Assembly (NCBI GenBank): GCA_018902915.1
Contig: JAHIPS010000016.1
Location: 4,368 to 68,367, forward strand
DNA from: Candidatus Omnitrophota bacterium
GTDB lineage: Bacteria > Omnitrophota > Gorgyraeia > Gorgyraeales > Gorgyraeaceae
Length of the DNA stretch: 64,000 nucleotides
Reading direction: 5' to 3'
Notes under the pieces: model-generated
The model's database searches: none
Told to the model about the DNA's origin: nothing
Seen by the model: the letters and a program-made list of their open reading frames with translations, nothing else
Part shown: piece by piece, positions 22,646-64,000 of the stretch
Layout: every line of letters starts with the position of its first letter
Position numbering within the stretch: the first letter of the stretch is position 1
Position numbers and translations under genes: made by a program

Positions 22646-22651
22646 ATGTAT

Positions 22652-32015: not shown

Positions 32016-32016
32016 A

Positions 32017-32104: not shown

Positions 32105-32124
32105 TAAATTTACCTCATAAATTC

Positions 32125-40892: not shown

Positions 40893-40921
40893 ATCCTCTT
40901 CCTTAATCCGCCTCAGGCGGA

Positions 40922-41608: not shown

Positions 41609-41631
41609 TATAGCCTCCTCATAGGCGTTTT

Positions 41632-41659
41632 ATTATAACATATAACTCCATATCGTCAA
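41632..41659 (-). promoter_or_regulatory. rpmH promoter (TTGACG-16-TGtTATAAT)
   Basis: Minus strand: -35 TTGACG (41659-41654), -10 TATAAT (41637-41632) preceded by TGT. Confidence 0.6.
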
Positions 41660-41680
41660 GGGGAAAAATGTGTATTGCCC

Positions 41681-41832
41681 AAATCTTATCTGACAGAACG
41701 TACGTGCCCCGTTCCAAATTCTAATTGATACTCGATTTATTGTTTGTAGCTGATTGTGTACAATTCTGATAAACTATTTGTTAATATTTAAGAATTTGGA
41801 ACGGGGCGTGTCGGATTTGTCAGATAAGATTT
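41681..41832. repeat. 152-bp inverted-repeat cassette in the rpmH-dnaA spacer (candidate oriC/DUE element or MITE)
   Basis: 41-nt arms aaatcttatctgaca-N10-gccccgttccaaattc and their reverse complement (outer 15 bp and inner 16 bp perfect, middle 10 nt diverged), flanking ~70 bp of AT-rich DNA. Confidence 0.6.
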
Positions 41833-41835
41833 TGC

Positions 41836-41864
41836 TTGATATGAAAATACTTGGCTGTTATAAT
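41836..41864 (+). promoter_or_regulatory. dnaA promoter (TTGATA-17-TGtTATAAT), 10 nt from the ATG
   Basis: -35 41836-41841, -10 41859-41864, dnaA ATG at 41875, no SD in between. Confidence 0.55.
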
Positions 41865-41874
41865 ACTCTGACCT

Positions 41875-43209: not shown

Positions 43210-43372
43210 CAGTGTGAATAATTAGTATTTTTTTGTGGATTATTTTTGTTTCATAACTATAATTGAATAAGCGGGTTTTAAGGTTACTAACATACCAACA
43301 CCGTATTCTACTAATACTACTAATTTTTCAATTAGATATGGATAGTAAACAGTAAACACTTGGGGGATGTGG

Positions 43373-44464
43373 ATGAAGATAAAAATACTAAAAGACGAGC
43401 TAATAAGAAACATACAGAACGTGCAGAATATTATATCAAGTAAAAGCAGCCTGCCGATCTTATCAAACGTATTGATCGAATCAGAGCAAGGTAGTGTAAA
43501 ACTCACAAGCACAGATCTTGATATAGGCATATCATCCGTATTTGCATCAGAAGTAGAGGAAAGCGGCGCTATTACAGTACCGGCAAAAAGATTTAGCGAG
43601 ATAGTGAAGGAGTTGCCAGACGAGGACATTATAATAAACACAATGAAAAATAACTCCATGACGATCAAATGCGGGAAATGTTTTTTTAAGATACTGGGCC
43701 TCCCAAAGGAGGATTTTCCAAAACTGCCAGAGTTTAAGAAAGATCCGCATGTTACAATAGAGCAGAGTGTTTTAAAAAAAATGCTCACCATGACGCATTT
43801 TTCGATGTCGCGTGACGAGGCAAGGTATGTCTTGAACGGCGCGCTATTTTTATTTAAAGGAAACAAGCTTACAATAGTAACAACGGATGGAAAAAGGCTG
43901 AGTCTTGTTGAAAAAGAAGCAGGCAGGGAAGTGCCGGACATGTCCATTATAGTGCCGTCAAAGACAATACATGAGCTCAACAGGGTGTTGGAAGATGGGG
44001 GAGAGGTCAAGATCACATTCAGCGAGAACCAGGTAAAATTCGAGTCAGGAAACATCACGATCATCTCGCGTCTTATAGAGGGCGAGTTCCCAAACTACGA
44101 ACAGGTCATACCAAAAGAGGCAAAGGAAAAGATAATTGTTAACAGGGAGCAGTTTTTGTTAGGCGTGAGAAGGGCAGGGCTTTTAACAACACAGGATTCC
44201 CAGTCCATAAAGATAGACATATTGAAGAACAGGCTCATAATCTCAAAGTCAAACCCGACTGTTGGCGAGGCAAAAGAAGAGATCGATATCGCGTATAAGG
44301 GCCCTGAGATGGTAGTGGGGTTTAACCCGGGTTATTTGATAGACGCGCTAAAAGTAATACCAAAGGATGAATTAGAGATAGAGATTATGGGACCTGATAA
44401 GCCAGCAGTGATGCGGGTAGAGGGTTTTTATGTTTACCTCGTGCTTCCTATGCAGCTGGCATAG
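43373..44464 (+). CDS. dnaN: DNA polymerase III beta sliding clamp
   Basis: MKIKILKDELIRNIQNVQNIISSKSSLPILSNVLIE.. (ATG 43373 with GGGGGA SD; 43367 is an alternative); three-domain clamp length. Confidence 0.95.
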   Translation: MKIKILKDELIRNIQNVQNIISSKSSLPILSNVLIESEQGSVKLTSTDLDIGISSVFASEVEESGAITVPAKRFSEIVKELPDEDIIINTMKNNSMTIKCGKCFFKILGLPKEDFPKLPEFKKDPHVTIEQSVLKKMLTMTHFSMSRDEARYVLNGALFLFKGNKLTIVTTDGKRLSLVEKEAGREVPDMSIIVPSKTIHELNRVLEDGGEVKITFSENQVKFESGNITIISRLIEGEFPNYEQVIPKEAKEKIIVNREQFLLGVRRAGLLTTQDSQSIKIDILKNRLIISKSNPTVGEAKEEIDIAYKGPEMVVGFNPGYLIDALKVIPKDELEIEIMGPDKPAVMRVEGFYVYLVLPMQLA

Positions 44465-44785: not shown

Positions 44786-48814
<4,029 letters not shown>

Positions 48815-48816
48815 TT

Positions 48817-51800
48817 ATGTACACGCAGAACGAAAAACTGATCCCGGTTTACATCGAAGACGAGATGAAGAATTCCTACCTCACTTACGCCATGAGCGTA
48901 ATCGTAGGAAGGGCCCTGCCTGATATCCGCGACGGTCTGAAGCCGGTCCACAGGCGCATTCTTTACGCGATGATGGATCTGGGCCTGGAGCACAATAAGC
49001 CGTATAAGAAAAGTGCTCGCATAGTTGGAGAATGTTTTGTTAGAGACACGCTTGTGTTAACCGAAAAGGGTTTGATTCCTATCCAAAATATTAGACGAGG
49101 AGACAGGGTGTTTACGCAACATAGCTTAAACCCTGTTACGCAGTTATATGAGATGCCAAAGAGAGAGCTTTTAAAAATTAGGCTTGACAATGGAACTCAC
49201 AATACAGTTACGCCTTCACAGAAATTTAAGGTGCTAGATAAAAATTTAGAATTTATTTGGAAAGAGGCAAAAGAATTAACCAGAGAAGATTATATTGTTA
49301 CAAGAGCTCATTATCCTGAAATTAAGGGTCCAGCGAAGCTGAACAAAAGCGTTGATATAAAAAAGCACCCTACTTATCTTAATGAAAATATAGCGTATGT
49401 GTTAGGTTTTTTGTTGTCAGATGGATCTGTGGAAAAATCTAACGGAAGACAGCGCAACAGGATGCGTTTTGATTCTTGCAGCGAAAGTATTTTAGAAAAA
49501 GTACGTTCAATTTTCAAACAAGAGTTTGATTATGAACCAAAGATTGAGGTGAAAGCATCTAGAGGCGTCACAAAGCACGGGAAGCCACTTAAAAAGATGT
49601 ATTCTATAAGGATCAACAGGAATCATATCAACAATTTCTTTATGTTAAATTTTAATCTCGAAGGCTGCAAAGCAAAGACTAAAGAAATCCCGCAGCAGCT
49701 ATATGTGTCCCCAAAGGAAGTAATATTTGCTTTTGTTTCCGGGTTAGTCGAAGGCGATGGTTCTATCCATCGCAGGAGAAACGTCATACATTATGGTTCG
49801 ATTTCCGAACAACTTATAGATGGGTTGCTAATACTTTTACAACATCAGGGTATTTTTGGTAGGAAATATAAGGCGAAGAAGACAAATTCTAGTTTTGTTT
49901 TAGGAAGGAAGGTCAAAGGCAAGGAAACATTTTATTCTTTAGAATTTAAAGGGTCTAACGCACTGTTGTTGGTCTCCAAAATTAACTGTGTTCAGGCGCT
50001 GAAACAGAGCAGGTTATTTGGTATATCTCTTAAACGGACGATTCCTTCAAGGCATGACCTTATTCCTTATGCAGGGGCTAATGTTTTTGCTGAATTGAGC
50101 ACAAGGCATATTGGGAGTGGCTGGTATCAAGATCTAAGCGGTGATAAATTCGGAAAGATAGGCCCGCCTCTTTCTACTTTTGTTGATGGCATAGTGGAGA
50201 ATAAAATTTATTTTTCAAAAATCGCTTCTATAGAAAAAGCTACGTCGCAGGAGACTTTCGACATACAAGTCGAAGGCGAGCACGAGTTTATTGCTAATGG
50301 CATGGTCTCTCATAATTGTCTTGGCAAATATCATCCGCACGGCGATACCGCTGTCTATGATTCGCTTGTCAGGATGGTGCAGAATTTTTCATTGAGGTAC
50401 CCTCTTATCGACGGTCAAGGCAATTTTGGCAGCGTCGACGGAGACGCTGCGGCTGCCATGAGATACTGCGTCGGCGGCGACTCTTTGATTGTGACAGAAA
50501 AAGGACTGCAAAGAATAGAGAAAATTCCGCATTATTCGAAAGTTTCTTTTAAGGCATTGTCAGCAAACAATAAAATAAATCATGTCTCAGAATGGTTTGA
50601 TTCGGGGGAACATCCGACAAAAACAATCAATACCTATAGAGGGTTTAGTTTATGCGGAAGCCTTAATCACCCTGTGCTGATTTGGCAAAAAGGGGGCGGC
50701 ACGAAGCCGCAGTTTAAATGGAAGTTACTGGACAAGATCAAAAAGGGTGATTATGCTGTAATTAGTAGAAATACTTCGCTGTTCCCTAAAAAAGAACCTT
50801 TTTTAATACCGTATCATCCGGAACTCAAAGGGGCTAGAAGAAACCACAGGCTTCCCGCCTTCATGAGCAAAGACCTTGCTTTTATTTTAGGAGCGGTGGT
50901 TTCAGAGGGTAATATTGATAAAAAGAAAATCGGTTTTTGTAATAACGACGATGTTTTTCTCAGAAAATTTAAAGAGAGTTTTAGAAAAGTATTCCCGGAT
51001 TGCAGGCTTCACGAATTTGTTAGAAAGCCGGTAGGGTATACAAAGAAGAATTATACTTCTTTAGAGATTCATTCACGCCATATTGTAGAATTCCTGAGCA
51101 ATCTTGGCCTTAAAGCAGGCACGGCAAAAGATAGAGCCGTGCCAGAAATTATATTTTCCTCGTCAAAGACATCAATAGCTTCTTTTCTGAGAGGATATGC
51201 GGAGGGGGATGGCAGCGTATACATGTCTTCTTCCTTGAAGAATATAGAAATTGTTTTTATATCGGTCAGCAAAAGGTTAATGCAAGAACTACAGATTTTA
51301 TTATTGAGGTTCGGGATAGATTCTTCCTATAGATGGCAAAGGACAAGAAATATTTTTAAATTATTTATACACGGACACAACAATCTCAATTTATTCAAAG
51401 ATCAGATAGGTTTTCTTACAAAACGAAAGCGTAATAAGCTAAGAGAAATTTGCGGTAGAAACAAAAGCGGCTGGGTTATGTCAAAGACAGATTTTGTGCC
51501 GTATGTTTCCGATTATATTAGAAGCAATGGTTACACAGGACACAGAGAGTGGCTTAGAAAACATAATATTGATAGATATACAAAGATAGAGAAATGCTGG
51601 GGAACTTTGAAGAAAATACTAAACAAAGAAGATAGGCAGTTGTATCAAATGTTAAAGAAAAATAAATATATTTTTGATCCCGTTATGTCTATAGAAGATA
51701 CAGGGCTGCAAAGGGTTTATTCCATAAAAGTAGATAGCCCCTGTCATTCATTTATATCGAACGGATTTATAAGTCACAATACAGAAGCGCGCATGGCTGC

Positions 51801-53844
51801 CATAGCAGATGAACTGCTCGAGGATATAGACAAGGATACAGTAGATTTTGTACCGAACTTTGACGAGTCTTTAGAAGAACCCAGCGTTTTACCGGCAAGA
51901 CTCCCTAATCTTTTAGTAAACGGCTCGAGCGGCATAGCAGTGGGCATGGCGACAAACATCCCGCCCCACAATCTTACCGAGATAGTGGACGCAGTAGTAA
52001 AGGTGATCTCTGAGCCAGATGTGTCCATAAAGGATCTGATGAAGATAGTAAAGGGCCCGGATTTCCCAACAGGCGGGATCATCTGCGGCAGGGACGGTAT
52101 AAAATCAGCGCATGAAACAGGAAGGGGCAAGCTAAGGCTTCACGCAAAGGCGGCTATAGAGCAGCAAAAAGGCAATAAAGAATCCATTGTCATAACAGAA
52201 ATCCCCTACCAGGTAAATAAATCAAAGCTCATAGAAAATATTGCTGACCTTGTGCAGGATAAAAAACTCGAGGGCATCTCTGACATAAGGGACGAGTCTG
52301 ACAAAGAAGGTATGAGGGTTGTCATAGACTTAAAGCGCGACCAGAACGCCCAGATCATCCTGAACCAGCTCTACAAGCGCACGCAGATGGAGACAACGTT
52401 TGGCGTGATCATGCTCGCGCTCGTCGACGGCAAACCAAGAGTTTTAAACCTAAAAGAGATTCTCGAAGAATATATAAAACATCGTCAGATCATAGTAAGG
52501 CGAAGGACCCAGTTTGAATTAAACAAGGCAGAAAAACGCGCGCATATCTTAGAAGGCCTTAAGATAGCCGTAGACCAGATAAACAAGATCATAAAGACGA
52601 TCAGAGAGTCAAAGGATGCCAAGGTCGCAAAAGACAGGTTAATGGAAAACTTTGACCTCTCGGATGTTCAGGCGCAGGCGATCTTAGAGATGCAGCTGCA
52701 GCGCCTGACAGCGCTTGAGAGGGACAAGATCGAAAAGGAATACCTGGAGCTTATAAAAAAGATCGAGATGTTAAATGCGATTTTAAAAAGCGAGAAAAAG
52801 ATTTTGGAGATCGTGAAAAACGAGGCGCTGGAATTAAAAAAAGTTTACGGCGACGAGCGAAAGACAGAGATAGTGGCAAAGGTCGAGGACATAGATATAG
52901 AGGACCTAATAGCAGAAGAAGACATGGTAATCACAATAAGCCACGCCGGTTACATAAAGAGGCTGCCCATAGGTTCTTATCGTAGCCAAAAAAGAGGGGG
53001 CGTGGGCGTAACAGGCATTGACATGAAGGACGAGGATTTTGTGGAGCACTTGTTTGTCGCATCCACGCACGAGCACATACTTGTTTTTACAAACACAGGC
53101 AAGGTCTTCTGGTTAAAAGTCTACGAGATACCTCAGGCGAGCCGCGCAGCCAGGGGTAAAGCGATAGTGAATCTTTTGCAGCTTGGCCAGGGCGAGCAGG
53201 TCTCTGCGTGCGTGAGGGTAAAGGAGTTTGAGGAAGGAAAATTTCTCGTGATGGCGACCAAGAACGGTTTGATCAAAAAGACAGATCTTATGGCGTATTC
53301 AAACCCGAGAAAAGGCGGCATAATCGGCATAACAATAGAAAAAGGCGACGAGCTTATAGAAGTAAAGTGGACTGACGGAAAGCAGGAGATGATCCTTGCG
53401 ACAAACCAGGGCAAGGCCATTAGATTTGCGGAGTCACAGGTAAGGAATATGGGAAGAGGCGCAAAAGGTGTAAAAGGAATCCGCCTTGGCAAAAAGGATC
53501 TGGTAATCGCGATGGAGCTCGCGAGAAAAGACGCCACGATCCTCACAGTTACATCACAGGGCTTTGCGAAGCGCACGCTTGTTGAACAATATAGAAAACA
53601 ATCCCGCGGCGGTAAAGGTATAAAGAACGTAAGTGTTACAAATAAGAACGGCGAGGCAGTGGGCCTGAGGATAGTAAATGACAAAGATGAACTCATGGTC
53701 ATGACAGAAAAAGGCATGGTCGTCCGCTGCCCGGTAAAAGATATACGCGCCACTGGAAGAGCAGCCCAGGGCGTCCGCATCATAAAACTCGACTCAGGCG
53801 ACAAGGTCTCTGCGATCGCCCGCGTCATACCTGAGGAAGAATAG
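48817..53844 (+). CDS. gyrA: DNA gyrase subunit A, interrupted by two inteins
   Basis: 1675 aa; ..[10 protein letters not shown]/[428 aa]/[29 protein letters not shown]/[438 aa]/TEARMAAIA.. then tower, coiled-coil and beta-pinwheel CTD. 809 aa spliced. Confidence 0.96.
49033..50316 (+). mobile_element. GyrA intein 1 (428 aa, LAGLIDADG) inserted in the QRDR-equivalent segment
   Basis: [13 protein letters not shown] (TGT 49033) ... [10 protein letters not shown] (AAT 50314-16) + Cys+1. [14 protein letters not shown] and [14 protein letters not shown]. Insertion after the residue equivalent to E. coli D72. Confidence 0.9.
50467..51780 (+). mobile_element. GyrA intein 2 (438 aa, LAGLIDADG) at the classic post-catalytic-Tyr site
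   Basis: [16 protein letters not shown] (TGC 50467) ... [11 protein letters not shown] (AAT 51778-80)/[18 protein letters not shown] and [14 protein letters not shown]. Blocks FDSGEHP.., [10 protein letters not shown] and [19 protein letters not shown] resemble the Mxe GyrA mini-intein as I recall it. Confidence 0.9.
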
Positions 53845-53850
53845 CCACAC

Positions 53851-53928
53851 GTCCCCATCGTCTAGTCTGGCCTAGGACATCAGATTTTCGATCTGACGAC
53901 ACCGGTTCGAATCCGGTTGGGGACGCCA
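53851..53928 (+). tRNA. tRNA-Glu (UUC), CCA encoded
   Basis: GTCCCCATCGTCTAGTCTGGCCTAGGACATCAGATTTTCGATCTGACGACACCGGTTCGAATCCGGTTGGGGACGCCA; anticodon loop TTTTCGA. Confidence 0.95.
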
Positions 53929-53986
53929 TCAATTCGGACACACCTGGACAGCGCTTCTTTATCATCTTATCTTCAATGATTATATA

Positions 53987-54184
53987 TGGACAGAAGTTAC
54001 GCTTCTAAAAGAGACTTCAAAAGCCATTTTAATAGAGTTTGATTATAGAAGAGCATGGTTGCCGAAGGCATGGATTTTGAGAATTAAGCGAGGCAAAGAC
54101 AAATCTTGTCATCGCGAGCCCCAAAAGGGTGAAGCAACCTCTATTAAAATATCCGAATATTACTGGACCAAGAAATTCCAATAA
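53987..54184 (+). pseudogene. small phage-like ORF lacking an in-frame canonical start
   Basis: Frame reads WTEVTLLKETSKAILIEFDYRRAWLPKAWILRIKRG..YYWTKKFQ*. The only nearby ATG (53986) is offset by one base (ATGG), suggesting a 1-nt indel or a non-canonical start. Confidence 0.35.
54107..54141. repeat. short hairpin element family 3, copy 1
   Basis: tGTCATcGCGAG-ccccaaaaggg-tGAAGCAAcc; same flanks as the copy at 60168. Confidence 0.6.
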
Positions 54185-54333
54185 AACCCTCTACAATCTA
54201 CAAGTGGGCCCATTATCATTATATGCCATGTGTTAAAATCGGCAATCGCATAAGATTCAAGGAGCAAAAGGTAGAAGAATGGCTCAAAAAGAGAGAAAGA
54301 AAAGGAAGAAATGCCTATAAAATGTCCCCATGA
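54148..54333 (+). pseudogene. excisionase/AlpA-type HTH remnant
   Basis: ..IPIKPSTIYKWAHYHYMPCVKIGNRIRFKEQKVEEWLKKRE.. resembles HTH_17 excisionase-family proteins. There is no ATG/GTG/TTG before the helix-turn-helix, and the first ATG (54223) would remove it. Confidence 0.4.
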
Positions 54334-54556
54334 AAACTCTTCCAGAACCCCCTATTCTGTGATATACTATATATAGAATATACATGTCTGCCAAATTAGG
54401 CCTTAGGGATTAAGGAGAGGTTGTTTTTTTACGTGCATTTTTGCTGGCATTAAAAAAGTATTAAGTTTCTTTTTATTGCCGCTATTTCTTTTTATTGATC
54501 TAATCTACTCCGCAAGGTAACTAGTTGAGTCAAAAAACCTGTTGCCTAGTCAAATT

Positions 54557-57500
54557 ATGTTAAAGTTCAAAAAGCATAATAAATTTAAAATCGCATCTCT
54601 GTCTTTTATAGCAAGCGCTAGCTTGTTATTTACCAATGCGTTATGCTCCTATCCTGCTCCTGAAGATCTTTTAAGAATGCCCGCAGGAGACGAGGAGACT
54701 TATCAACGTCTCCTGCATGGACAAATGAACAATCCTCATTTGTCAGCTAATAAATCTAAAGATTTAACTCGGGAATCAGAAACTATTAGAAAGATTGGGT
54801 TAGATCTTGCGCTTATCCAGCGTATGAAAAGCAAACAACGCAATTCCTTAATAGCTGCTTTTGAAAAAGCTGAAAGAGCAAGTAAGGATTCCTCGGACAA
54901 CGAACTAACCGAAGAGGATATAGAGTTTTTCAAGGTTTATGGTGAATTATTCAATGAGGAATATTTCGAGAAAGGAACTATTTCTTCGTACAAGAATTAT
55001 GGTACATTTCCTGGACTTATTGAGCCTCGCATCGAGACAATCATCAAGGAGCTAGGACTTAAAGCTGGGGATAGAGTTCTAGATGTTGGCTGCGGTAATG
55101 GAGACTATGTAAAACTGTTAAGATTGAGTGGAATTGACGCTAAAGGAATAGAGATCTCAACTTACGTCTTAGGAAAAGCAGATAAAGATACCAGAAAACA
55201 TTTATTTCTATTAGATCAATTGGATTTGTTCGATGAGTTCGAATCAAAAAGCTTTGATTTGATCCTGTTAAAAGATATATTAGAACATATACCAGAAGAA
55301 GTTCTTCCACGTTTTTTGTCTACCATAAAGAAGCTGGGAAAAAAAGCACTTATTACTGTGCCTCTTGCAGATAATGAGGGCAGATTCTTAAACCCGGATG
55401 ACAACCAGGACTTAACGCATGTAGTTAGGAGAGGAAGGAACTGGTGGCTTGAGTCTTTAAATTCAGATTGCGAAGATACGGATAATATAAATTTAGCATT
55501 TAAGAAAGAGAAGGCCGATGGAACACTTTGCGTAATTGCGTCTTTGGAAAGCAAGGAATCTATTGACAGAGGCGCAGATAGTACGTTATTCAACACTACC
55601 GGACCTATAAAAATAGCTTTAATGGGAACTGCAATGATAAGAGCAGAACCCATAAAGAAAAGCGACTATTATAAAAGCAAGATCCAGAAAAAGTTTTTGG
55701 AACCACCGATTGGCGTATATAGATTGCAACATTTTCTGCAGGAAATGTTTGCAGATCAAATAGAAGAAGGCAAACTAATCATAGATGTGTTTGATCCCAG
55801 TTTTCTCTCTGCAACAGATAGCCTCCCATCATTTTTTTCTAAAGTGCGGTCCGAAGGATATCATGTTATCGGATTCAGTCCGATAAGGGTCCTTTTAGGA
55901 GAAGACCTCTTTTTTATGAGCAGAGTTTATAAAGAAGCTCTTGGCTCTGGTGTCCGCCCTTTATTTATTTCTGGAGGAAACGAAGCCTCAATTAATAGTC
56001 AGGTTTTATTCGATACGATGCCATGGATGGATTTTTGCATATACGGCCTTGGAGAGCCTGTTTTACAGAACATTCTCAACGAAGTATTTAGTAGTCCTGC
56101 GAAACAGTTTACAAGGAAAAATTTTTATAATGTGCCAGGACTTATCTATTATAAAGACTCCAAATTATTTCGGAATCCTTACAAGGCTTCTCATGAAGAA
56201 ATTAAACACCTTTCAAACTACACCCCATTAAACATACCTTACCAGGATTATTGGGCTCTTGCCAACACTAGTGTTGGCAAGATAAAAGGACTCAGGCATA
56301 CTAACGTGATAAGAATATTTATGAGTAACTATTGTCCTTATAACTGCGCCTTTTGTAGTGACCATGCTATTGGTAGGGCAGTTTTTGGTAGAGATATAGC
56401 TCCTGTAACTGCAGCGGAGTTTGGGACCATTATCAAAACGCTCTATCAAAAAAAAGGGGTGGAAGGCATATATTTCAATGATGATGACATGTTTGTTGAT
56501 AGAAAAAGGGCTCGTGAGACTCTAAAAGAAATTATCAGAATGAAAGAAAATGGAGAAATCCCTGCTAATATGAAATTTTATGGTCAAACGCGAGTAGACA
56601 GAATTACCGAAGAATTATTAGATTTGGCGAGAAAAGCGAGATTTGTTTATCTGGGTTTTGGCGTTGAATCTTTTTCTGACGAAAGCTTGTCTGCTCCAGA
56701 TATGAACAAAGGATACAAGGCTAAGATAGCTTTTGATAATGTAAAGCGTTCCCTAGAAAAAAGAATCCCTATTACTAATATTAATTTACTATTGTTTCAC
56801 CCTACTATATCAAGAGCATCTTTTATTACAACAACTGAAAAAACAGTAGAACTATTGCATGAATCATCGAAGCATCGGGCGAAACTGTCGGTAAACAGTT
56901 TTCCTGTTATTGAATCATATGTAGGCGCTCCAATAAATGAACTAGCAAAAGCTAAGGGTTGGCCACTAGAAAAAGAAAGCATAACCCATAATGGGAAAAC
57001 ATGGGAATATACTGTAAATTATCTCCCTGTCGATAAAGAAATGCGAAGTGTGGTTGAAAATCAAAGACTGCTAAAAGAGTTCCAGGGTGTAATGAAAAGA
57101 CTTGCCGAAGACAAAAGATGGCCGGGGACAACTGTATCTAGGAGCATAGGAGTAAATGGCTTGGCAATGTTTATGGCTGCTTATAGGATTCTAGGCATCA
57201 ATAACAGAGAATCATCTGTATCTATAGAGGATATGGAAGAGTTGATATGGAAATTAATCGAGACATTCCACTATGTAGAAGAAACTGCTAAGATTCTTTC
57301 AACTCAGAATGCAAACATTGTATTTACACAGTATAACCAAAAATTTATCTTCCGCAGAGGTTCAATGCCTTTGTCAGAAATCCCTTCTTTTGTAACTGCA
57401 GCTCTAGGTGAAAAATGCCCCAGAGAAACATTGATTTCTTTTAGGAATGCAAATTATTTAGATATCGAGCAAGCCTTACAGGGGGTTCTTTCTGGAGAGG

Positions 57501-59986
57501 TAAATAGTTTACAAGAGGCGTTTTCAAAATACGGTATGCCTGCTTATGAATACCCTAACTTTAAAAAAGTGTTGTTAATTGCTCCGTGCGGAAACTACGA
57601 TGGAACACCATTAAAAACAGTCGTTCCACACCTAGGCCTGGAAAGAATAGCACATTATGTTTTGAGAAGCGCTCCTGATGTAGACTGTAGGGTGTTTAAT
57701 CCTAATATAGTTGGGCGCGATAGGTTAAAAAAAGTGATTGAAGATGAATTTTTTGACGTAGTGGGGTTTAGTTTTCTTCCAGTTACGCTTAAAAACGATT
57801 CCCCTATGATCGATCTTGTAGCCAAGGAGTCACCAAACTCTATCTTAATAGCTGGCGGGATTAATATCAGAAAATTGCCTCACCAAGAAATCTTTGGAAT
57901 AATTCCGCTTGATGTCTTTATAGCTGGTCCTGGAGAGGCGACCTTTTGTAAAATTTTGGAGCAATTGCCACCCTCTGCTTCTGGCAAAAAAAAGAGCGTA
58001 AAAATCAAAAAACTTGAAGAAATTGCCAATCTTTATATTTATAATGAAAATCGGCTCAGCGCTACTAAACAACATCCCTTCCATTTTGTACAAATAGAAG
58101 AAAGCGAGCTACGAAGAGATATTGCTTACACAACCCCTGATCTGATTCATGGAGTAACATACGAAGTTGCAACCCAAGACACTCACAGCGAAATTTTACC
58201 TTTTGATATGGTAGGAACTAGGCGTTTATATCTTAAGAGCACAGATAGATGCAAAGCAAATTGCATTTTTTGCTCTGCGCCTAAAGAAAAAAACGAATCT
58301 GAGAGCATGGATACTTTGATAGAAGCTATGAGGAATGTCAGAGGAGAATATGATAGTGTGCATTTTTCTGACAATGACTTTCTGGTTGACCACGCAACAG
58401 TAAGAGACCTTTGCTATAAGATTATCGAGGCGGGATTAGAAAAGATTCCCAAAGTATGCAAATCACGCACTGATGAAGTAAATCCAGAAATATTAACACT
58501 CTTAGCGAAGTCTGGCTTTAGAATAGTGACCTATGGAGTAGAATCATTTGATAATAGCGTCCTTCGCAGGATGAGAAAAGGAACGACGCAGGAGCAAAAC
58601 GAAAAAGCTTTAAATATGACTCTAATGGCCGGGATTAAGCCTGGGATGGACATGATTTTCTTTTCTCCTTGGGAGACCAAAGAGACGCTTCTTCATTCGG
58701 TTGAGAAAGCTGTAGAATATATAGAGAAAGGAGCTTATCTTAATTGCACAACCGCCATGCACACTCAACTTGGCGATAAATTTAGTTCTGAAGGAAAAAA
58801 ACAGCAAATTCGCTACCAAGAGATTGATTTTACAAGCACAGGAAAAACTTTTCTTAATCCGGAGCGCATAATTCTATCCGCAGATATGGAAGATTTGAGA
58901 AAAAGAGTTTTGGATAGGCGTGCAATACTTGAAGAGTTAGCTAAGAAGAAATATGCAGCTACACACGGAAAATATGTCTCCTTTTCAACTTTATCGCTAC
59001 TTTTTTGCAAGGCTTTTTACGAAGTTCTCTTAGACGAGGATGTTGAAAAAAAAATAGAGAAAGAGTATAAAGTAAAGATAGACCAAATTAATACATTAAT
59101 AGACAGGACAATTACATTAGAAAGCCAAAGAATAGTAATCTTGCCCAAAGCCTCTTCCGGTGCTTCTACTTCTGCAATAATTCACAACATTTCAATAAAT
59201 TCTCAAGAAATACCGAATATTGATAGCAGAAAAGATGCTTATAATGCGTGGCGTAGAAAAGTCCGTGATCGTGAAATGTTTAGCGAAGCTGAGCTTAAAA
59301 GAAAGAAGGTTTTTTATCGTTATGGAAAAAAAGCCAGTGATAGATTACCCTCGGGAGAGGGGCATTATGGTATGGCTGCTGCCCTTTTTTTAAAGCCTGC
59401 TGGAGCATTAAAAGATAACATTAATATTATTTACGACGCCTTTAGAGGAACGCAAGCATATAGAAATAATAAATTGAGACTGTACAATTACGATAGTATT
59501 CATCACTCCTTAAATATATACGCCAGATTTGAAGACAAGCCGATTGCAGAAGACTTACAGCTTAAACATATGTTGAATTTGCAAGAATCTATCAAAGGCA
59601 CCTCGAGCTTCTTAATATATTTCGAAGGGGTTAACTGGAATAGCAATGACCATAAATTTGCCTTGCAGGCTTATCCTGGAAAACAGTTTTTGGATATAGA
59701 AAGTAAACTAAGAAGAGAAAATTATGATCGTATTGAATTTTCATTTGCTACAATTGTTGGAGAGTTAACACAACAAGAGCTGGATGAATTATTATCTTTA
59801 GTTAATATGTATGCTGAATTACCCATTGGTCTTAAAGCAGTAAAAGAAGTGAGTTTAGTACATGCCAAGGATGAGATGCTTGCAGATTCTATCTTTGTTA
59901 AAGATGTTGCTTTGCAACATACCGAAGCAATTAAAGTTATAGATATAGATCGGATGAACCGAATTATTATAGAAACTGGATTGTAA
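54557..59986 (+). CDS. 1,809-aa multidomain protein: N-terminal signal/anchor, class-I SAM methyltransferase, two tandem B12-binding-type radical SAM modules, unassigned C-terminal region
   Basis: VLDVGCGNGDY (55076-55108). HVIGFS..ISGGNEAS..YGLGEPVL then CPYNCAFC (56333-56356). DVVGFS..IAGGIN..AGPGEATF then CKANCIFC (58250-58273). I recognise no motif in the last ~330-400 aa. Confidence 0.75.
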   Translation: MLKFKKHNKFKIASLSFIASASLLFTNALCSYPAPEDLLRMPAGDEETYQRLLHGQMNNPHLSANKSKDLTRESETIRKIGLDLALIQRMKSKQRNSLIAAFEKAERASKDSSDNELTEEDIEFFKVYGELFNEEYFEKGTISSYKNYGTFPGLIEPRIETIIKELGLKAGDRVLDVGCGNGDYVKLLRLSGIDAKGIEISTYVLGKADKDTRKHLFLLDQLDLFDEFESKSFDLILLKDILEHIPEEVLPRFLSTIKKLGKKALITVPLADNEGRFLNPDDNQDLTHVVRRGRNWWLESLNSDCEDTDNINLAFKKEKADGTLCVIASLESKESIDRGADSTLFNTTGPIKIALMGTAMIRAEPIKKSDYYKSKIQKKFLEPPIGVYRLQHFLQEMFADQIEEGKLIIDVFDPSFLSATDSLPSFFSKVRSEGYHVIGFSPIRVLLGEDLFFMSRVYKEALGSGVRPLFISGGNEASINSQVLFDTMPWMDFCIYGLGEPVLQNILNEVFSSPAKQFTRKNFYNVPGLIYYKDSKLFRNPYKASHEEIKHLSNYTPLNIPYQDYWALANTSVGKIKGLRHTNVIRIFMSNYCPYNCAFCSDHAIGRAVFGRDIAPVTAAEFGTIIKTLYQKKGVEGIYFNDDDMFVDRKRARETLKEIIRMKENGEIPANMKFYGQTRVDRITEELLDLARKARFVYLGFGVESFSDESLSAPDMNKGYKAKIAFDNVKRSLEKRIPITNINLLLFHPTISRASFITTTEKTVELLHESSKHRAKLSVNSFPVIESYVGAPINELAKAKGWPLEKESITHNGKTWEYTVNYLPVDKEMRSVVENQRLLKEFQGVMKRLAEDKRWPGTTVSRSIGVNGLAMFMAAYRILGINNRESSVSIEDMEELIWKLIETFHYVEETAKILSTQNANIVFTQYNQKFIFRRGSMPLSEIPSFVTAALGEKCPRETLISFRNANYLDIEQALQGVLSGEVNSLQEAFSKYGMPAYEYPNFKKVLLIAPCGNYDGTPLKTVVPHLGLERIAHYVLRSAPDVDCRVFNPNIVGRDRLKKVIEDEFFDVVGFSFLPVTLKNDSPMIDLVAKESPNSILIAGGINIRKLPHQEIFGIIPLDVFIAGPGEATFCKILEQLPPSASGKKKSVKIKKLEEIANLYIYNENRLSATKQHPFHFVQIEESELRRDIAYTTPDLIHGVTYEVATQDTHSEILPFDMVGTRRLYLKSTDRCKANCIFCSAPKEKNESESMDTLIEAMRNVRGEYDSVHFSDNDFLVDHATVRDLCYKIIEAGLEKIPKVCKSRTDEVNPEILTLLAKSGFRIVTYGVESFDNSVLRRMRKGTTQEQNEKALNMTLMAGIKPGMDMIFFSPWETKETLLHSVEKAVEYIEKGAYLNCTTAMHTQLGDKFSSEGKKQQIRYQEIDFTSTGKTFLNPERIILSADMEDLRKRVLDRRAILEELAKKKYAATHGKYVSFSTLSLLFCKAFYEVLLDEDVEKKIEKEYKVKIDQINTLIDRTITLESQRIVILPKASSGASTSAIIHNISINSQEIPNIDSRKDAYNAWRRKVRDREMFSEAELKRKKVFYRYGKKASDRLPSGEGHYGMAAALFLKPAGALKDNINIIYDAFRGTQAYRNNKLRLYNYDSIHHSLNIYARFEDKPIAEDLQLKHMLNLQESIKGTSSFLIYFEGVNWNSNDHKFALQAYPGKQFLDIESKLRRENYDRIEFSFATIVGELTQQELDELLSLVNMYAELPIGLKAVKEVSLVHAKDEMLADSIFVKDVALQHTEAIKVIDIDRMNRIIIETGL

Positions 59987-60167
59987 CTAATCTTCTGGTG
60001 CCCAAACAGGTGCCCAACCAAAGAGAATATAGAGTCAACAAAAGTAAACAAAAGTGAACTATATAGAAAGTCTAACCCCTTATCAAATATAGACTTAACT
60101 CCATAACTCCTTAAATCCCAATAAGTTATAAAAATCCCCTTAAAAGAATCCATCCCTCTCCGCCACG

Positions 60168-60203
60168 TGTCATTACGAGGGCATGAAATGCCCGAAGCAA
60201 TCC
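60168..60203. repeat. short hairpin element family 3, copy 2
   Basis: tGTCATtaCGAG-ggcatgaaatgccc-GAAGCAAtccc. Confidence 0.6.
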
Positions 60204-60305
60204 CACACCTGCCCCTAAAACTTAGAATAAAACTTACTATGTTACCCTACCAACTGGTAGATTATCGAACCTAACAATTTAACAACAAATAAGCTGTTAA
60301 AATAC

Positions 60306-60334
60306 TTGACAGCTGTAAATCTTTACAGTATACT
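60306..60334 (+). promoter_or_regulatory. lexA promoter with embedded SOS box
   Basis: TTGACA (60306-11), 17-nt spacer containing CTGTaaatctttACAG (60313-60328, CTGT-N8-ACAG), -10 TATACT (60329-34). The ATG lies 7 nt downstream. Confidence 0.7.
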
Positions 60335-60341
60335 TAAGGGT

Positions 60342-60977
60342 ATGCAAAGCAGGGTTCTTACAAAGCGCCAGACTCAGATATTCGACTTTATTTTATCCAA
60401 TATAGATAAATTTGGATACCCGCCTTCTATCCCAGAGGTCCAGAAAAGATTTTCTTTTAAATCTCCAAATGCTGTTCAATCTCACTTTGATGCCCTTGAG
60501 CGCAAAGGTTATGTTTCCCGCAGGCCCCATAAATCAAGAGGCATCGAGGTATTAGTTCACACTACACAAAAAGAAAATAATAATAGTACTACAATACCAA
60601 TACTAGGAAATATATCGGCAGGAAATCCTATCCTTGCACAGGAGAATATTGAAGGAGAGCTTGTTGTTGACAAGTCTTTAGCAAAGAACCCCGCAGGAGT
60701 TTTTGTATTAAAAGTCAAAGGGGACAGCATGATCGAAGCCGGCATATTGGAGGGAGATCATGTGGTGGTCAGGCAACAGCAAAGCGCAGAAGAAGGAGAT
60801 ATAATAGCCGCACTTATTGAAGATGAGGCAACTGTTAAAAAATTCTATAAAGATAAAAGCGCCAATAGAATAGTTTTACAGCCGGCAAATAAAAATATGG
60901 AGCCAATATATGTTGACTTATCGTATAATAATTTTATGATATTAGGAAAGGTAACAGGAGTTATTAGAAAAATATAG
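60342..60977 (+). CDS. lexA: LexA repressor (S24 peptidase)
   Basis: MQSRVLTKRQTQIFDFI..GYPPSIPEV wHTH. Ala-Gly cleavage site in GNISAGNPILAQENIEG. KGDSMIEAGI (Ser) and ATVKKF (Lys) catalytic dyad. Confidence 0.9.
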   Translation: MQSRVLTKRQTQIFDFILSNIDKFGYPPSIPEVQKRFSFKSPNAVQSHFDALERKGYVSRRPHKSRGIEVLVHTTQKENNNSTTIPILGNISAGNPILAQENIEGELVVDKSLAKNPAGVFVLKVKGDSMIEAGILEGDHVVVRQQQSAEEGDIIAALIEDEATVKKFYKDKSANRIVLQPANKNMEPIYVDLSYNNFMILGKVTGVIRKI

Positions 60978-60988
60978 GAGAATTAAAT

Positions 60989-62188
60989 ATGCCAGTTTCA
61001 GTTTATCAAATAATCAAAGAGCGGTTAAAGAATGATTGTCTATTAAAAGAGGGACAGGAGCAGTTAACCCTTTTTGATATTTTTAATTTGCCTACACTAG
61101 AACGCCCCCCGGTTATTTATCCCATAACTATATTAAAAAGGCAATCTCTTAGAAAAGCTGGTGATAGGCAAGAGTTACTGCAAATCCAGAGCAGAAGATA
61201 CATGGGCAATAAATTTAAATTATCAAGCTTTATAAGGGAAATCATTGACAGGGAATGCGAAGAATCCAGCAGTATTTGTGACATATTTGCTGGGACCGGT
61301 GTGGTGGGGAATGGATTCAATAAAAATGGCAGAAAAATAATAAGCAATGAGCTACTCTATAGCAATTATGTTTCTCTTTATGCATGGCTTTCTCCTGAGC
61401 AGTTTGATATGGGGAAGATAGCAGACTATATCCGGATGTTAAACGAAATCAATTCTGTTAAGGAAAATTATGTCTCACAGAATTTTGGAGGCACGTATTT
61501 TACGATTGAGAATGCGAAAAAGATAGGGGCTATAAGGGAAAAGATAGAAGAATTGGAAGTAAATTTTAAAGAAAAATGCATTCTTTTAACTTCTTTACTT
61601 TACGCAATGGATAAGGTTGCTAATACATGCGGTCACTACGATGCATTTAGGAGAACCTTAGATACAGTTACGCCAATAAAATTATTGATTCCGGATGTAC
61701 AACAGGACAAAAACAGCCAAAATGAGATATATAACGAAGATGCAAATCAGCTTGTACGTAAGATAAAGATGGATGTGCTTTATATAGATCCTCCTTATAA
61801 TTCCAGGCATTATTGTGACAGCTATCATTTATTAGAGAATATTATAACATGGAAAAAACCAGAGGCATTCGGAGTAGCCAAGAAGATGGTGCGCAGCGAC
61901 TTGAAGAGTCAATATTGCCTGAAAACAGCACCGAGGGTTTTTGACGATCTAATAAGAAATGCTAACTGCAGGTATATACTAGTTTCCTATAATAACATGG
62001 CAGGCAAGGGAAACAATCGTTCGAATGCCCGAATAAAAGATGAGGCAATGATCAGCAGTCTTTCCAAAAGAGGCAGGGTTAAAATCTTTGAAACTGGGTT
62101 CAAAAGTTTTACAACAGGAAAAAGCAAAATAGAAAACCATACAGAAAGAATATTTTTCTGTGAAGTATTAAGAAGTATTAAAGGGTGA
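60989..62188 (+). CDS. D12-class N6-adenine DNA methyltransferase (R-M modification subunit)
   Basis: 399 aa; RRYMGNKFKL, FAGTGVVG (motif I), LYIDPPYNSRHY (motif IV DPPY). AGGAG SD overlaps the lexA stop, with an 11-nt gap. Confidence 0.85.
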   Translation: MPVSVYQIIKERLKNDCLLKEGQEQLTLFDIFNLPTLERPPVIYPITILKRQSLRKAGDRQELLQIQSRRYMGNKFKLSSFIREIIDRECEESSSICDIFAGTGVVGNGFNKNGRKIISNELLYSNYVSLYAWLSPEQFDMGKIADYIRMLNEINSVKENYVSQNFGGTYFTIENAKKIGAIREKIEELEVNFKEKCILLTSLLYAMDKVANTCGHYDAFRRTLDTVTPIKLLIPDVQQDKNSQNEIYNEDANQLVRKIKMDVLYIDPPYNSRHYCDSYHLLENIITWKKPEAFGVAKKMVRSDLKSQYCLKTAPRVFDDLIRNANCRYILVSYNNMAGKGNNRSNARIKDEAMISSLSKRGRVKIFETGFKSFTTGKSKIENHTERIFFCEVLRSIKG

Positions 62189-62194
62189 AGTTTA

Positions 62195-64000
62195 ATGGCG
62201 CACGTTCAATGGTGTGTAGGCAATACTACATTAAGAGAAGCAGCGCGGCTTAAAGACGGCTTAAAGGTTCTTAAAGAACATTTTGATGGCGAACCCTGGA
62301 CATATGAAAATCAAAAGAGATTTTTGGAACTCTTACAGCAAGAAGGTATCTATGGACCAGCAGAAGCAAAAAGCAGTAAACAAATAGAACAACACGGAAG
62401 GATTTGGAGTTCGGCTTTTAATGAATTAGGATTTGCCACTTGTTATAAGAAAGGAAATAAATATGTACCAAGTGGTGCAAGGATCACCAAGGCAGGAGAG
62501 GCATTACTTTCTGATAATTATGTAGAAGAAGATGTATGGCTGCGCCAGCTTTTAAAAGTTCAATTTCCCAATTCTCTCCCTCAGAAATCAGAGAATCAAT
62601 ATCCCGGATTTAATTTATTGCCATTTCAGGCGGCACTTAGAATTATTAAACAATGTGATGGTGTTTCAAAAGATGAAGGGTTTATTGTAAATACTTTAAA
62701 GGCGATGGGTGATGTTAATAAAGCAGTCGGGTCTATTCAAAGATATAGAAAAGGATTAGATTTGGCGCGCGAAGAAGGTAGGGATGCTATTAGAAAATAT
62801 GTTATTCAGCAACAGTGTGATATGGCAAAGGGTCTTTATAGGGATGAAGTCGATGAACGCCTAAAATACATAAGAAGCTATTATAAAAGCAAGAGCCGCG
62901 CTAAAGATGGAAGATTGCTGTATGCGATAGTTAAAGGCGGCAAAGGATCAAGAACTTCTGAAGCAATTAGATTGGCAGGCGACCTCAAAGATTTAAAGAA
63001 AAAAGGTGCTCCTTCAAAAGAAATGGAAGGGCGCTTCCTTTCTTATTTTCTTATCTTGAAGTCCAACGCGTGGCGAGATTATATTGATGCGACTGCAAGA
63101 TATTTCAGGATGGGCGGCATATTGACGATTCGCCGTTCAAGGATAAATATAGCCGAGACTCATAGAGATATAGCGGATTGGATACTTTCGCAAGATTGGG
63201 TAATAAAGAAAAATGGCGACTATCTTGAGTATTTACACGATCATGCTTTACCAGTACTTCCTCAAGATAAAATAGACTACCTTAGGGGTAAAACAGATAG
63301 AGTTCTTGATGAGGTAATGCAACTTTCAAAATCGACCGCAATAAAAGTGGAACCAAAAATAGTAAAAATAGATAAAGAAATTGCGGATCCTCTGCTATTA
63401 AGAAAACAACTGCTCAACTTAACTGAAACAAAACGAGAATTAAAAGAATATGAATACATGTTATCGTTGCATCGGGGAAAAGATACCGTAGATAAGATCG
63501 TAGATTATTTCGATTCTATCAATCGCAAGGATATTTTAGGTTATAGGCCTACACATTTTGAATGGAATGTATGGCGTGGTTTTCTAGCTATAGATAAACT
63601 GCTAAAGTTACCACACGAATGCAGAAATTTCGACATCGATGATGATCTTCAGCCAAGAAATTTTGCGCCAGGCGGCAAACCCGATATGGTATTTTACTAT
63701 AAAGATTATGTGTTGGTGGTTGAAGTTACGCTTTCAGTGGGAGAGACACAATATAATACCGAACATGAACCTGTACCTCGACATGTTGTAAGGGTTATAG
63801 AGCAAGAGAAAAGTAAAGATGTCTATTCTTTATTCATCGCCCCTAAAATACACATCAATACGGCTATTCATTTCTACGCAAAGATGACATCAGCCCCACA
63901 TGTTAACTCGAACGGCGAAAAACTTTATCCTAAAATCATCCCTTTAACCTTAGATGATTATATATTACTGCTTAAGATATTTCAGGAGAAGAGATATTTA
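62195..64000 (+). CDS. AlwI-family (Type IIS/nicking-type) restriction endonuclease; 3' end runs off the window
   Basis: Not in the ORF track (open to the edge). Own translation: MAHVQWCVGNTTLREAARLKDGLKVL..ATARYFRMGGILTIRR..FEWNVWRGFLAI..DLQPRNFAPGGKPDMVFYYKDYVLVVEVTLSVGETQYNTEHEPVPRHV..YSLFIAPKI. This closely parallels N.BstNBI/AlwI-family blocks as I recall them. Confidence 0.8.
   Translation, partial: MAHVQWCVGNTTLREAARLKDGLKVLKEHFDGEPWTYENQKRFLELLQQEGIYGPAEAKSSKQIEQHGRIWSSAFNELGFATCYKKGNKYVPSGARITKAGEALLSDNYVEEDVWLRQLLKVQFPNSLPQKSENQYPGFNLLPFQAALRIIKQCDGVSKDEGFIVNTLKAMGDVNKAVGSIQRYRKGLDLAREEGRDAIRKYVIQQQCDMAKGLYRDEVDERLKYIRSYYKSKSRAKDGRLLYAIVKGGKGSRTSEAIRLAGDLKDLKKKGAPSKEMEGRFLSYFLILKSNAWRDYIDATARYFRMGGILTIRRSRINIAETHRDIADWILSQDWVIKKNGDYLEYLHDHALPVLPQDKIDYLRGKTDRVLDEVMQLSKSTAIKVEPKIVKIDKEIADPLLLRKQLLNLTETKRELKEYEYMLSLHRGKDTVDKIVDYFDSINRKDILGYRPTHFEWNVWRGFLAIDKLLKLPHECRNFDIDDDLQPRNFAPGGKPDMVFYYKDYVLVVEVTLSVGETQYNTEHEPVPRHVVRVIEQEKSKDVYSLFIAPKIHINTAIHFYAKMTSAPHVNSNGEKLYPKIIPLTLDDYILLLKIFQEKRYL

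Follow-up and report, generated by a model that had tools for sequence, protein, structure and literature searches.

The 64,000-nucleotide (nt) stretch of DNA analysed here (the window: positions 4,368 to 68,367 of contig JAHIPS010000016.1, assembly GCA_018902915.1, Candidatus Omnitrophota bacterium) is probably Omnitrophota chromosome. Close to its right-hand end lies a lexA gene with a putative SOS box in its promoter, followed on the same strand by the genes of a restriction-modification (R-M) system: a DNA methyltransferase (M1) and an endonuclease (R). An earlier note on this DNA had offered two alternatives for the arrangement, namely that LexA acts as the controller of an R-M operon, or that an R-M module has hitch-hiked into the lexA operon. 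Below, related loci are designated by L numbers.

Organization of the lexA locus

The promoter of lexA (P_lexA) is the best promoter-like site within positions 59500-64000 and contains the putative LexA operator (Table 1). M1 starts 11 nt past the TAG stop of lexA, and R starts 6 nt past the stop of M1, in a frame that stays intact for 602 of ~643 codons up to the window end. In L001, L003 and L266 the R protein is 643 amino acids (aa) long. A second methylase gene, M2 (N6_N4 family, CcrM-like), comes directly after R in L001, L003/4 and L266, where it abuts or overlaps R in L001, L004 and L266; the M2 of the window lies beyond base 64000. The nearest solved structure to R is that of N.BspD6I (2e-33), with which the recognition domain of R (residues 1-290) does not align. 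Counts of recognition sites in the window show GAGTC to be undepleted and GGATC to be mildly depleted (0.85).

No terminator-like site was found in 60306-63024; the sole weak candidate, at 63025, falls within the reading frame of R and is at chance level. Neither a small helix-turn-helix (HTH) open reading frame (ORF) of the XRE type nor a C-box was found between or beside lexA, M and R, and in relatives HTH_3 ORFs occur only at more than 1 kb past M2, by recombinase genes. The ratio of nonsynonymous to synonymous divergence (dN/dS) is 0.07-0.08 for M1, 0.09 for R and 0.07-0.10 for M and R overall. Such purifying selection indicates that M and R are working genes.

Everything that the earlier note had read directly from the letters stood up: a TTGACA-17-TATACT promoter with an SOS box as its spacer, lexA with an Ala-Gly cleavage site and a Ser/Lys dyad, a D12-class methylase that begins 11 nt past lexA and whose AGGAG overlaps the lexA stop, an endonuclease of the AlwI family another 6 nt past the methylase stop, and no hairpin or T-run between the three genes.

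Table 1. Features of the window, beginning with those of the lexA locus (positions are those of the 64,000-nt window).
Feature	Position	Strand	Evidence or remark
P_lexA: -35 TTGACA (60306-60311), 17-nt spacer, -10 TATACT (60329-60334)	60306..60334	+	11/12 matches
Putative LexA operator (SOS box), CTGTAAATCTTTACAG	60313..60328	.	Occupies the promoter spacer
lexA, 211 aa, intact	60342..60977	+	Pfam LexA_DNA_bind and Peptidase_S24; TIGR00498
Candidate internal promoter P2, TTGACT-16-TATGAT	60913..60940	+	10/12 matches; 3' end of lexA, ~50 nt before the M1 start
lexA/M1 junction: TAG stop, overlapping AGGAG, 11-nt spacer, ATG of M1	60975..60991	+	Direct reading
M1, D12-class N6-adenine DNA methyltransferase, 399 aa, DPPY motif	60989..62188	+	Pfam MethyltransfD12, 1.8e-30
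R, AlwI-family Type IIS endonuclease	62195..64000	+	Pfam RE_AlwI (PF09491), 1.7e-57, residues 77-591
tRNA-Glu (UUC)	53851..53928	+	ARAGORN and Rfam; directly 3' of gyrA; anchors the variable island with lexA
tRNA-proximal spacer with small ORF, conserved	53929..54185	+	Adjoins the lexA promoter directly in relatives
Inserted block, ~6.1 kb, between the spacer and the lexA promoter	54186..60304	+	Contains the 1814-aa ORF (54542-59986)
yidC / dnaA / dnaN origin region	39309-44464
tRNA-Val/Leu/Cys cluster	31939-32199	-
6S RNA gene	22463-22647	-

The LexA protein

By every testable criterion the predicted product of lexA is a LexA protein. Its N-terminal winged helix matches Pfam PF01726 (LexA_DNA_bind, 1.5e-23), its C-terminal part matches PF00717 (Peptidase_S24, 6e-33), and with the NCBIfam LexA equivalog TIGR00498 it reaches 233.6 bits, the cut-off being 110.95. 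The residues Ala93-Gly94, Ser129 and Lys166, which align with A84-G85, S119 and K156 of Escherichia coli LexA, are invariant in 15 sequences of the clade. The gene has a dN/dS of 0.13 and a G+C content of 37.7%, like that of the R-M genes.

Its nearest LexA relatives are labelled Candidatus Omnitrophica, and the sister group, at ~65% identity, is Atribacterota. More than 100 clusters of LexA at 62% identity or above belong to this clade. The clade covers two phyla at 62-70% LexA identity with a common promoter-operator; among the matches listed, LexA proteins of other phyla are ~45% identical. Metagenome-assembled genomes (MAGs) carrying the module include GCA_018818505.1, GCA_018901615.1, GCA_003513845.1 and GCA_039638295.1. 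A viral origin of this LexA was rejected, since no member of the clade was found on IMG/VR viral contigs among the matches listed, the best of which is 45% identical.

The lexA promoter and its putative operator

As a bare motif, CTGT-N8-ACAG is unremarkable: the window holds two matches, and at least two were obtained in 11 of 100 shuffles. A matrix made from the orthologous sites gives the lexA box 25.4 bits; the runner-up in the 64 kb has 12.7 bits. Every relative has the extended arrangement TTGACA-N-CTGTAAAT-N4-A(C/T)AG-TAT in the corresponding position, amid flanks that are unalignable; this holds for both Omnitrophota and Atribacterota and where LexA identity is as low as 62%. In L096 the operator is a perfect palindrome, CTGTAAATATTTACAG. 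We infer that LexA binds this conserved operator. It agrees at 15 of 20 positions with the E. coli consensus, TACTGTATATATATACAGTA.

The lexA mRNA of the window is probably leaderless, because the ATG comes only 7 nt after the -10 hexamer (60329-60344). Spacing is equal in L003 and L009 and is 8 nt in L005, and other members of the clade have a lexA leader of ~30 nt with a ribosome-binding site.

Motifs of the CTGT-N8-ACAG type have so far been reported for Gammaproteobacteria (PMC4951493); no report of the type for Omnitrophota or Atribacterota was found in the literature searched. The second match in the window (CTGTGGCCTTGTACAG, 1347-1362) scores below 10 bits, lies outside the extended motif of the clade and is probably a chance match. 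A search of IMG/VR with the promoter-operator pattern gave one viral match (L267, 2092-2117), at an unrelated phage switch promoter with an HTH-type gene and an integrase-like gene nearby and with no lexA there; this site may be the LexA-type box of an unrelated phage.

Linkage of lexA to R-M genes across relatives

A survey of homologous lexA loci for linked R-M genes, which the earlier note had put forward as a check, was made by comparing what lies around lexA in 15 lineages of the LexA clade that can be told apart. All 15 carry, directly behind lexA and on its strand, methylase or R-M genes (at least seven kinds in all) or else the decayed 5' stump of such a gene. The system of the window (D12, AlwI and N6_N4) is shared with L001/2, L003/4 and L266, begins 11 nt after the lexA stop, and is decayed in L095. 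A second system, consisting of D12 and N6_N4 genes with ORFs of 302-311 aa and 163 aa, is found in L009-11, L179/180 and L261-4 with a gap of 9-14 nt, and is decaying in L265. In L005-7 the gap is 6 nt and leads to a zinc-ribbon ORF, which is accompanied by a C5 methylase and Vsr. Longer gaps precede a TdeIII endonuclease with D12 and N6_N4 genes (L096/97; 61 nt), an N6_N4 methylase alone (L172-5; 177 nt), an N6_N4 gene with a 365-aa ORF and a D12 gene (L176; ~190 nt), and an Eco57I-like methylase (L093; 416 nt). L008 and L094 have a stump only. Two unrelated R-M types thus begin within 9-14 nt of the lexA stop.

As a control, lexA loci from other phyla (LexA less than 55% identical) were drawn from genome and metagenome contig scans. 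None of 117 such distant loci gave a tblastn match (E <= 1e-4) to any of 11 methylase and endonuclease seeds within 4 kb on either side, and among 150 downstream ORFs of 79 control loci the 25 commonest Pfam families include no DNA methylase family. The neighbours of the control lexA genes are mostly convergent RsfS or HD genes. Linkage between lexA and R-M genes is therefore a property of the whole LexA clade, and is far from accidental. It is present also in loci with neither a tRNA gene nor a recombinase gene within 8 kb (L172, L176, L265 and L266); in L176, from Atribacterota, lexA stands among housekeeping genes, 8 kb from recA-recX. The lexA/R-M junction recurs in independent assemblies (ENA, NCBI MAGs, JGI and Logan).

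The junction itself outlasts the genes behind it. That between lexA and M1 is kept in L003, L266, L095, L093, L094 and L008, even where M1 is a stump only: L093, L094, L095 and L008 retain TAG-GAG, an 11-nt spacer (9 nt in L008), ATG-CAG, and, over ~40 nt, homology with the start of the AlwI-type M1 gene. In L176, ~125 nt of the other D12 gene are retained before a different R-M system. The retention of stumps at the junction indicates that cargo has been replaced downstream of a junction that persisted.

Two of the ORFs associated with these systems have features of their own. The presumed endonuclease of the D12 and N6_N4 system (the 302-311-aa ORF: L009, 10535-11443; L179, 2835-3743; L261, 10524-11459) has no Pfam match and contains two LAGLIDADG-like motifs, AYLLGLIVGRGT and FLRGVADVTGS; the protein may be a restriction enzyme of the LAGLIDADG type. 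The zinc-ribbon ORF (L005, 1586-1789; likewise in L006 and L007) encodes 67 aa with two CxxC pairs and is without a family match.

Co-divergence and horizontal exchange

The genes of the unit lexA-M1-R-M2 diverge together. Between the window or L001 and L266, loci with differing flanks, identity is 65% for LexA, 68% for M1, 69% for R and 62-64% for M2. Within the second R-M type, LexA proteins are 68-71% identical and R-M proteins 75-90%. The nearby gyrA gene differs: its synonymous divergence (dS) is saturated (1.4-2.8 among the window, L003, L005 and L009), and that of lexA is 0.26-0.37 (window, L003 and L005), 5-10 times below that of gyrA. M and R have a dS of 0.36-0.59 (L001 vs L003). GyrA proteins are equidistant at ~82%, and the corresponding LexA identities are 91% vs 73%. 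Base composition follows the same division. The G+C content of lexA equals that of the R-M genes (35-38%), with a backbone of 40-46% in the window, L003, L005, L009, L094, L265 and L266; in loci of the Omnitrophota type lexA is 3-8 points under the adjacent backbone. As a mark of the island, lexA, M and R stand at 36-38% G+C and the backbone at 42-44%.

The window, L001 and L002 are 100% identical through lexA (60246-60986), after which identity drops abruptly: past lexA, the window vs L001/L002 shows 67-81% in M1 (protein 76%, dS 1.8) and 82-94% in R. L002 combines the upstream flank of the window with the R-M allele of L001. By this pattern of identity, the difference between the window and L001/L002 is a swap of R-M alleles with the crossover at the lexA stop. 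The lexA gene itself is a mosaic of identities, including a 99% block shared by the window and L003.

In L009 the tRNA-Glu gene (6965-7042) has an exact copy of its 3' 53 nt at 15917-15969, 8.9 kb downstream and just past a tyrosine integrase gene. This repeat places lexA and the R-M genes between the attL and attR sites of an integrated island. No repeat of the tRNA-Glu 3' end was found within the 64 kb of the window, where the far border of the island lies past the window end; no att repeat was found in L001, which ends soon after its recombinase gene, or in L006, which ends inside an integrase fragment. Distal recombinase genes are present in L001, L003, L006, L009 and L179, and the genes downstream of the R-M systems include serine recombinases, tyrosine integrases, AbiE, OLD-like AAA_15, HEPN_AbiV, PycTM and IS110.

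Genes of defence type follow the R-M genes in L266 (12626-13156), L176 (11947-14735) and L009 (12347-16636); they comprise PycTM, DUF6338/HEPN_AbiV/DUF3800, OLD-like AAA_15/AAA_21 and AbiEii. Their position behind the R-M genes marks the flank of lexA as a small defence island in several lineages. In L179, the only long repeats are direct ones of ~75 nt (1-214 and 6542-6685) that flank the block from lexA to AAA_15, and the contig opens with 55 nt that match 6630-6685 in reverse complement; these repeats may represent att-like sites, or may reflect an inversion or a fault of assembly.

Divergence, composition and crossovers thus show that lexA and the R-M genes are passed on as a single module, by inheritance and by exchange alike. 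Strictly vertical inheritance of a chromosomal lexA, with later R-M insertions, was rejected as a full explanation, since lexA resembles the R-M genes, and not gyrA, in its low dS and low G+C.

Setting of the locus in the window

The window comprises the chromosomal replication-origin region, with yidC (minus strand), dnaA (41875), dnaN, gyrB, gyrA, tRNA-Glu, an ORF of 1814 aa, lexA, M and R in that order; lexA is ~18 kb from dnaA. The order gyrA, tRNA-Glu, lexA is kept in three related Omnitrophota lineages (L003/4, L005/6 and L009), and in L003 and L005 an identical tRNA-Glu gene is found 277-281 nt upstream of lexA. The tRNA-Glu spacer of the window has 77-80% identity with the full stretch between tRNA-Glu and lexA in L003 and L005, and with L009 7757-7942. 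Its small ORF, which ends in ...ISEY(H/Y)W(V/T)KKFQ (L009, 7710-7949; L003, 7720-7950), is present in all four Omnitrophota lineages and had no family match in NCBIfam, the sole library searched.

Because the 256 nt after the tRNA-Glu gene of the window are homologous to the whole spacer of its relatives, the giant ORF is part of a 6.1-kb insertion between this spacer and the lexA promoter. The block is not at the corresponding position in L003, L005 or L009, and has a G+C content of 37.2% vs 43.7% for gyrBA; no repeats were found on its flanks. According to Pfam, the 1814-aa ORF joins two radical S-adenosylmethionine (radical-SAM) domains to a class-I SAM methyltransferase and a B12-binding domain.

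Two short elements with the pattern GTCAT(T/C)(A/G)CGAG-hairpin-GAAGCAA(T/C)C occur at ~54110-54150, just inside the tRNA-Glu spacer near the left edge of the insertion, and at ~60170-60212, ~100 nt inside its right edge. The pair may represent a small repeated element. No Rfam match to a structured RNA was found in 59987-64000. Within gyrB-gyrA (44798-53844), gyrB contains one intein with a LAGLIDADG domain and gyrA contains two inteins; gyrA inteins are also present in the related loci L004 and L009, and intein content varies.

A proposed lexA-headed R-M module

The reading we favour, to which we assign a probability of about 0.6, is that of a lexA-headed R-M module in which lexA, M1, R and M2 are transcribed together from a LexA-repressed promoter and their translation is coupled. 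The unit would be preceded by a sigma-70 promoter close to consensus, with a palindromic operator occupying its 17-nt spacer, and LexA would repress this promoter and hence its own synthesis. Since neither a promoter nor a terminator would fit into the gaps of 11 and 6 nt, and M2 abuts or overlaps R in relatives, the R-M genes would be transcribed by read-through, and their translation is probably coupled. Autoregulation by LexA would keep R-M output low and steady; self-cleavage of LexA, stimulated by RecA, would raise it, for instance upon DNA damage, attack by phage or self-restriction. Over evolutionary time lexA is the constant left-hand anchor, with R-M cargo being swapped, decaying and being replaced behind it, and in Omnitrophota the module resides in a variable island beside tRNA-Glu. 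Co-transcription, SOS inducibility and a physiological benefit are all things that we infer; as lexA is paired with restriction genes in all related lineages compared, from two candidate phyla, these bacteria probably link an anti-phage nuclease to the DNA-damage alarm.

A number of observations weigh against such a module. A P2-like site, TTGAC(T/C)-16-TA(T/G)(G/A)AT, is found at a fixed position (-64 from the lexA stop) in most Omnitrophota-type lineages, although not in L179, L176 or L172, and P2, if active, could supply the R-M genes with LexA-independent basal expression. The codons at this site specify V-D and F-M-I or V-R-I, so that coding constraint is inseparable from promoter function. 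The earlier note had named a terminator or an independent promoter separating lexA from the R-M genes as evidence that would count against a common transcript: no terminator lies between the genes, and the candidate promoter P2 is one that it had missed. In several lineages the gaps of 61-416 nt lack a second operator, which suggests looser coupling there. It is these gaps and the conserved P2-like site that hold our confidence at the level given above. Apart from the lexA box, the matrix scan detected no operator in the 64 kb of the window or across ~200 kb of related loci, among which there was no recA, uvrA or imuA promoter; in particular, integrase and excisionase genes, R-M genes behind long gaps, and the genes for UDG and PolX all lacked one. 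Finally, the source organisms are uncultured, and the repressor stands before both M and R, an order that provides no delay of R after M. For this last reason a classical timing role like that of a C-protein is unlikely; it was rejected also for want of a small HTH gene adjacent to the R-M genes. Of the suggestion that LexA is the R-M controller, then, a functional tie between LexA and R-M is supported (15/15 lineages vs 0/117 controls), timing of the C-protein kind is not, and P2 could feed the R-M genes independently.

Could the linkage instead reflect a hot spot, at which R-M systems pile up by a conserved lexA next to the tRNA-Glu site, with their own promoter in the 3' end of lexA and with LexA control incidental or absent? 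The distal recombinases and the defence genes behind the R-M genes are what such a history would produce, as are the tRNA-Glu att pair of L009, the allele-swap crossover placed exactly at the lexA stop, the mosaic identity of lexA, the internal promoter-like site conserved at -64 and the old methylase stumps that remain after cargo replacement; lexA would, on this account, give one-sided homology for recombination. A hot spot leaves unexplained, however, why the first gene is a methylase or endonuclease gene in nearly every lineage, and not a defence or mobile gene of another sort; why R-M systems of two unrelated types start 9-14 nt after lexA with a ribosome-binding site; and why lexA, M1, R and M2 diverge in proportion over 35% LexA divergence in differing contexts. 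The linkage moreover persists where no tRNA or recombinase gene is within 8 kb, and because the -35 and -10 hexamers of P2 lie in conserved codons their conservation may be coding constraint only. We consider this account unlikely. Controller and hitch-hiker, the alternatives posed by the earlier note, are in any case not mutually exclusive: lexA travels with the R-M genes as a horizontally exchanged low-G+C module, and in L009 it lies inside the tRNA-Glu island.

A different account takes this LexA to be a dedicated regulator, a captured mobile paralogue whose sole target is its own promoter and which does no more than sense damage as the switch of the R-M or island module, with another lexA, or none, governing the repair genes. 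It would fit the finding that the only operator in the window and related loci is at the lexA promoter, the low G+C and horizontal history that lexA shares with the R-M genes, its place within the att-bounded island of L009, and the occurrence of one clade with the same promoter-operator in two unrelated phyla at 62-70% identity, when LexA proteins of other phyla reach only ~45% among the matches listed. Yet the protein passes the LexA equivalog model by a wide margin, the scarcity of operators says little when no recA, uvrA or imuA promoter was among the sequences scanned, the Atribacterota lexA of L176 lies amid housekeeping genes without recombinases, and no clade member was among the viral matches listed. 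A dedicated regulator is improbable in our view. That the adjacency is due to chance, or to a chimeric contig, might be entertained because R-M systems are common and mobile and because the sequences are metagenome assemblies; given that the junction repeats in independent assemblies, that linkage is complete in the clade and absent from the controls, and that selection on both M and R is purifying, we regard it as exceedingly unlikely.

The lexA-headed module may also be viewed on a wider scale. Tentatively, LexA could have been captured as the built-in damage sensor of mobile R-M cassettes, the module of promoter, SOS box, lexA, M, R and M spreading across lineages and phyla, exchanging its R-M cargo behind an unchanging lexA and making restriction SOS-inducible; we hold this to be possible, but short of probable. 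At its core is the dedicated regulator considered above.

Significance

The timing of R-M systems is attributed to C-proteins, methylase autoregulation or antisense RNA, and the SOS response is seen as governing repair, mutagenesis, prophages and some toxins. These two areas would be joined by a lexA-R-M operon, if real, that is conserved and horizontally exchanged. Restriction would then be low, with its noise buffered by LexA autoregulation, and would be boosted when damage, phage or self-restriction activates RecA. The parts are ordinary (a LexA, and a Type IIS R-M system of the AlwI/N.BspD6I family with two methylases); it is their combination that is out of the ordinary, and by analogy the locus would be a defence system with a built-in repressor responsive to DNA damage. 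Should the wider proposal of a mobile cassette also hold, it would constitute a previously unrecognised mode of R-M control, and the only LexA of the cell in these reduced genomes may come from a defence element. The locus also shows recombination exchanging both alleles and types of R-M genes behind a lexA that stays in place as the anchor, a concrete example of the turnover of defence cargo at a conserved gene.

Full-text search of the literature found no description of a lexA-R-M operon or of a LexA-controlled R-M system, which agrees with the earlier note, whose author knew of none. A review of R-M regulation from 2013 names LexA for toxin-antitoxin systems only, and describes R-M systems as behaving like toxin-antidote pairs (PMC3874152). 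In Moraxellaceae, a WYL regulator connects the damage response with anti-phage defence (PMC12392091).

Comparison with known systems

The predicted enzymes resemble those of the AlwI/N.BspD6I/PleI/MlyI family of Type IIS systems, with which they share the RE_AlwI domain and the two methylases flanking R that are expected for an asymmetric site; M2, being CcrM/HinfI-like (the GANTC class), fits a site of the GAGTC type. Unlike in that family, there is here no gene for a small subunit, and GAGTC is undepleted in the window.

C-proteins, known from the PvuII, BamHI and Esp1396I systems, are small XRE-type HTH activator-repressors without signal input that delay R relative to M. In those systems, as here, the regulator gene heads the R-M unit, its product binds an operator in its own promoter, and the gene travels with the R-M genes. 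The regulator of the present locus differs in being a full LexA, with a winged helix and a self-cleaving S24 peptidase domain, which precedes both M and R with no obvious delay between them, and which would respond to RecA and DNA damage.

Other units headed by lexA include E. coli lexA-dinF and the mutagenesis cassette lexA2-imuA-imuB-dnaE2. There too lexA is the first gene of a multigene unit under its own operator, and the imuAB cassette has likewise spread horizontally with a copy of lexA; their cargo, however, serves repair, efflux or translesion synthesis, whereas in the present clade several unrelated R-M types occupy one junction. Toxin-antitoxin systems under SOS control (tisB/istR, symE/symR, and yafNO in the dinB operon) are alike in that a LexA-repressed promoter drives a potentially lethal toxin-antidote pair, but these have SOS boxes of their own and are not fused to lexA; here the endonuclease and methylases are inside the lexA operon. 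Phage CI, SetR of SXT and tRNA-integrated islands offer the parallel of a self-cleaving repressor on a mobile element whose genes are coupled to the host SOS response, and L009 has the tRNA gene, att repeat and integrase of such an element. CI and SetR have an XRE-type HTH and control lysis or transfer genes, and differ in this from a protein that is LexA by the equivalog model, that has R-M genes behind it, and for which no operator was found at integrase or excisionase genes.

WYL-domain BrxR/CapW and CapH-CapP are damage-responsive regulators found upstream of defence systems, among them bacteriophage exclusion (BREX) and cyclic-oligonucleotide-based anti-phage signalling (CBASS). As in the arrangement proposed here, the gene of a damage-sensing regulator lies directly upstream of an anti-phage system, raising immunity upon a signal of DNA damage. 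The means differ: those regulators rely on WYL binding of single-stranded DNA or nucleotides, or on a partner protease, as against the RecA-stimulated self-cleavage expected of LexA, and none of them is known to involve LexA or a classical Type II R-M system. The lexA-R-M module, if correctly read, would be a parallel to them that employs the classic SOS repressor with classic Type II enzymes, and in function it appears closer to the damage-sensing repressors upstream of BREX and CBASS than to C-proteins.

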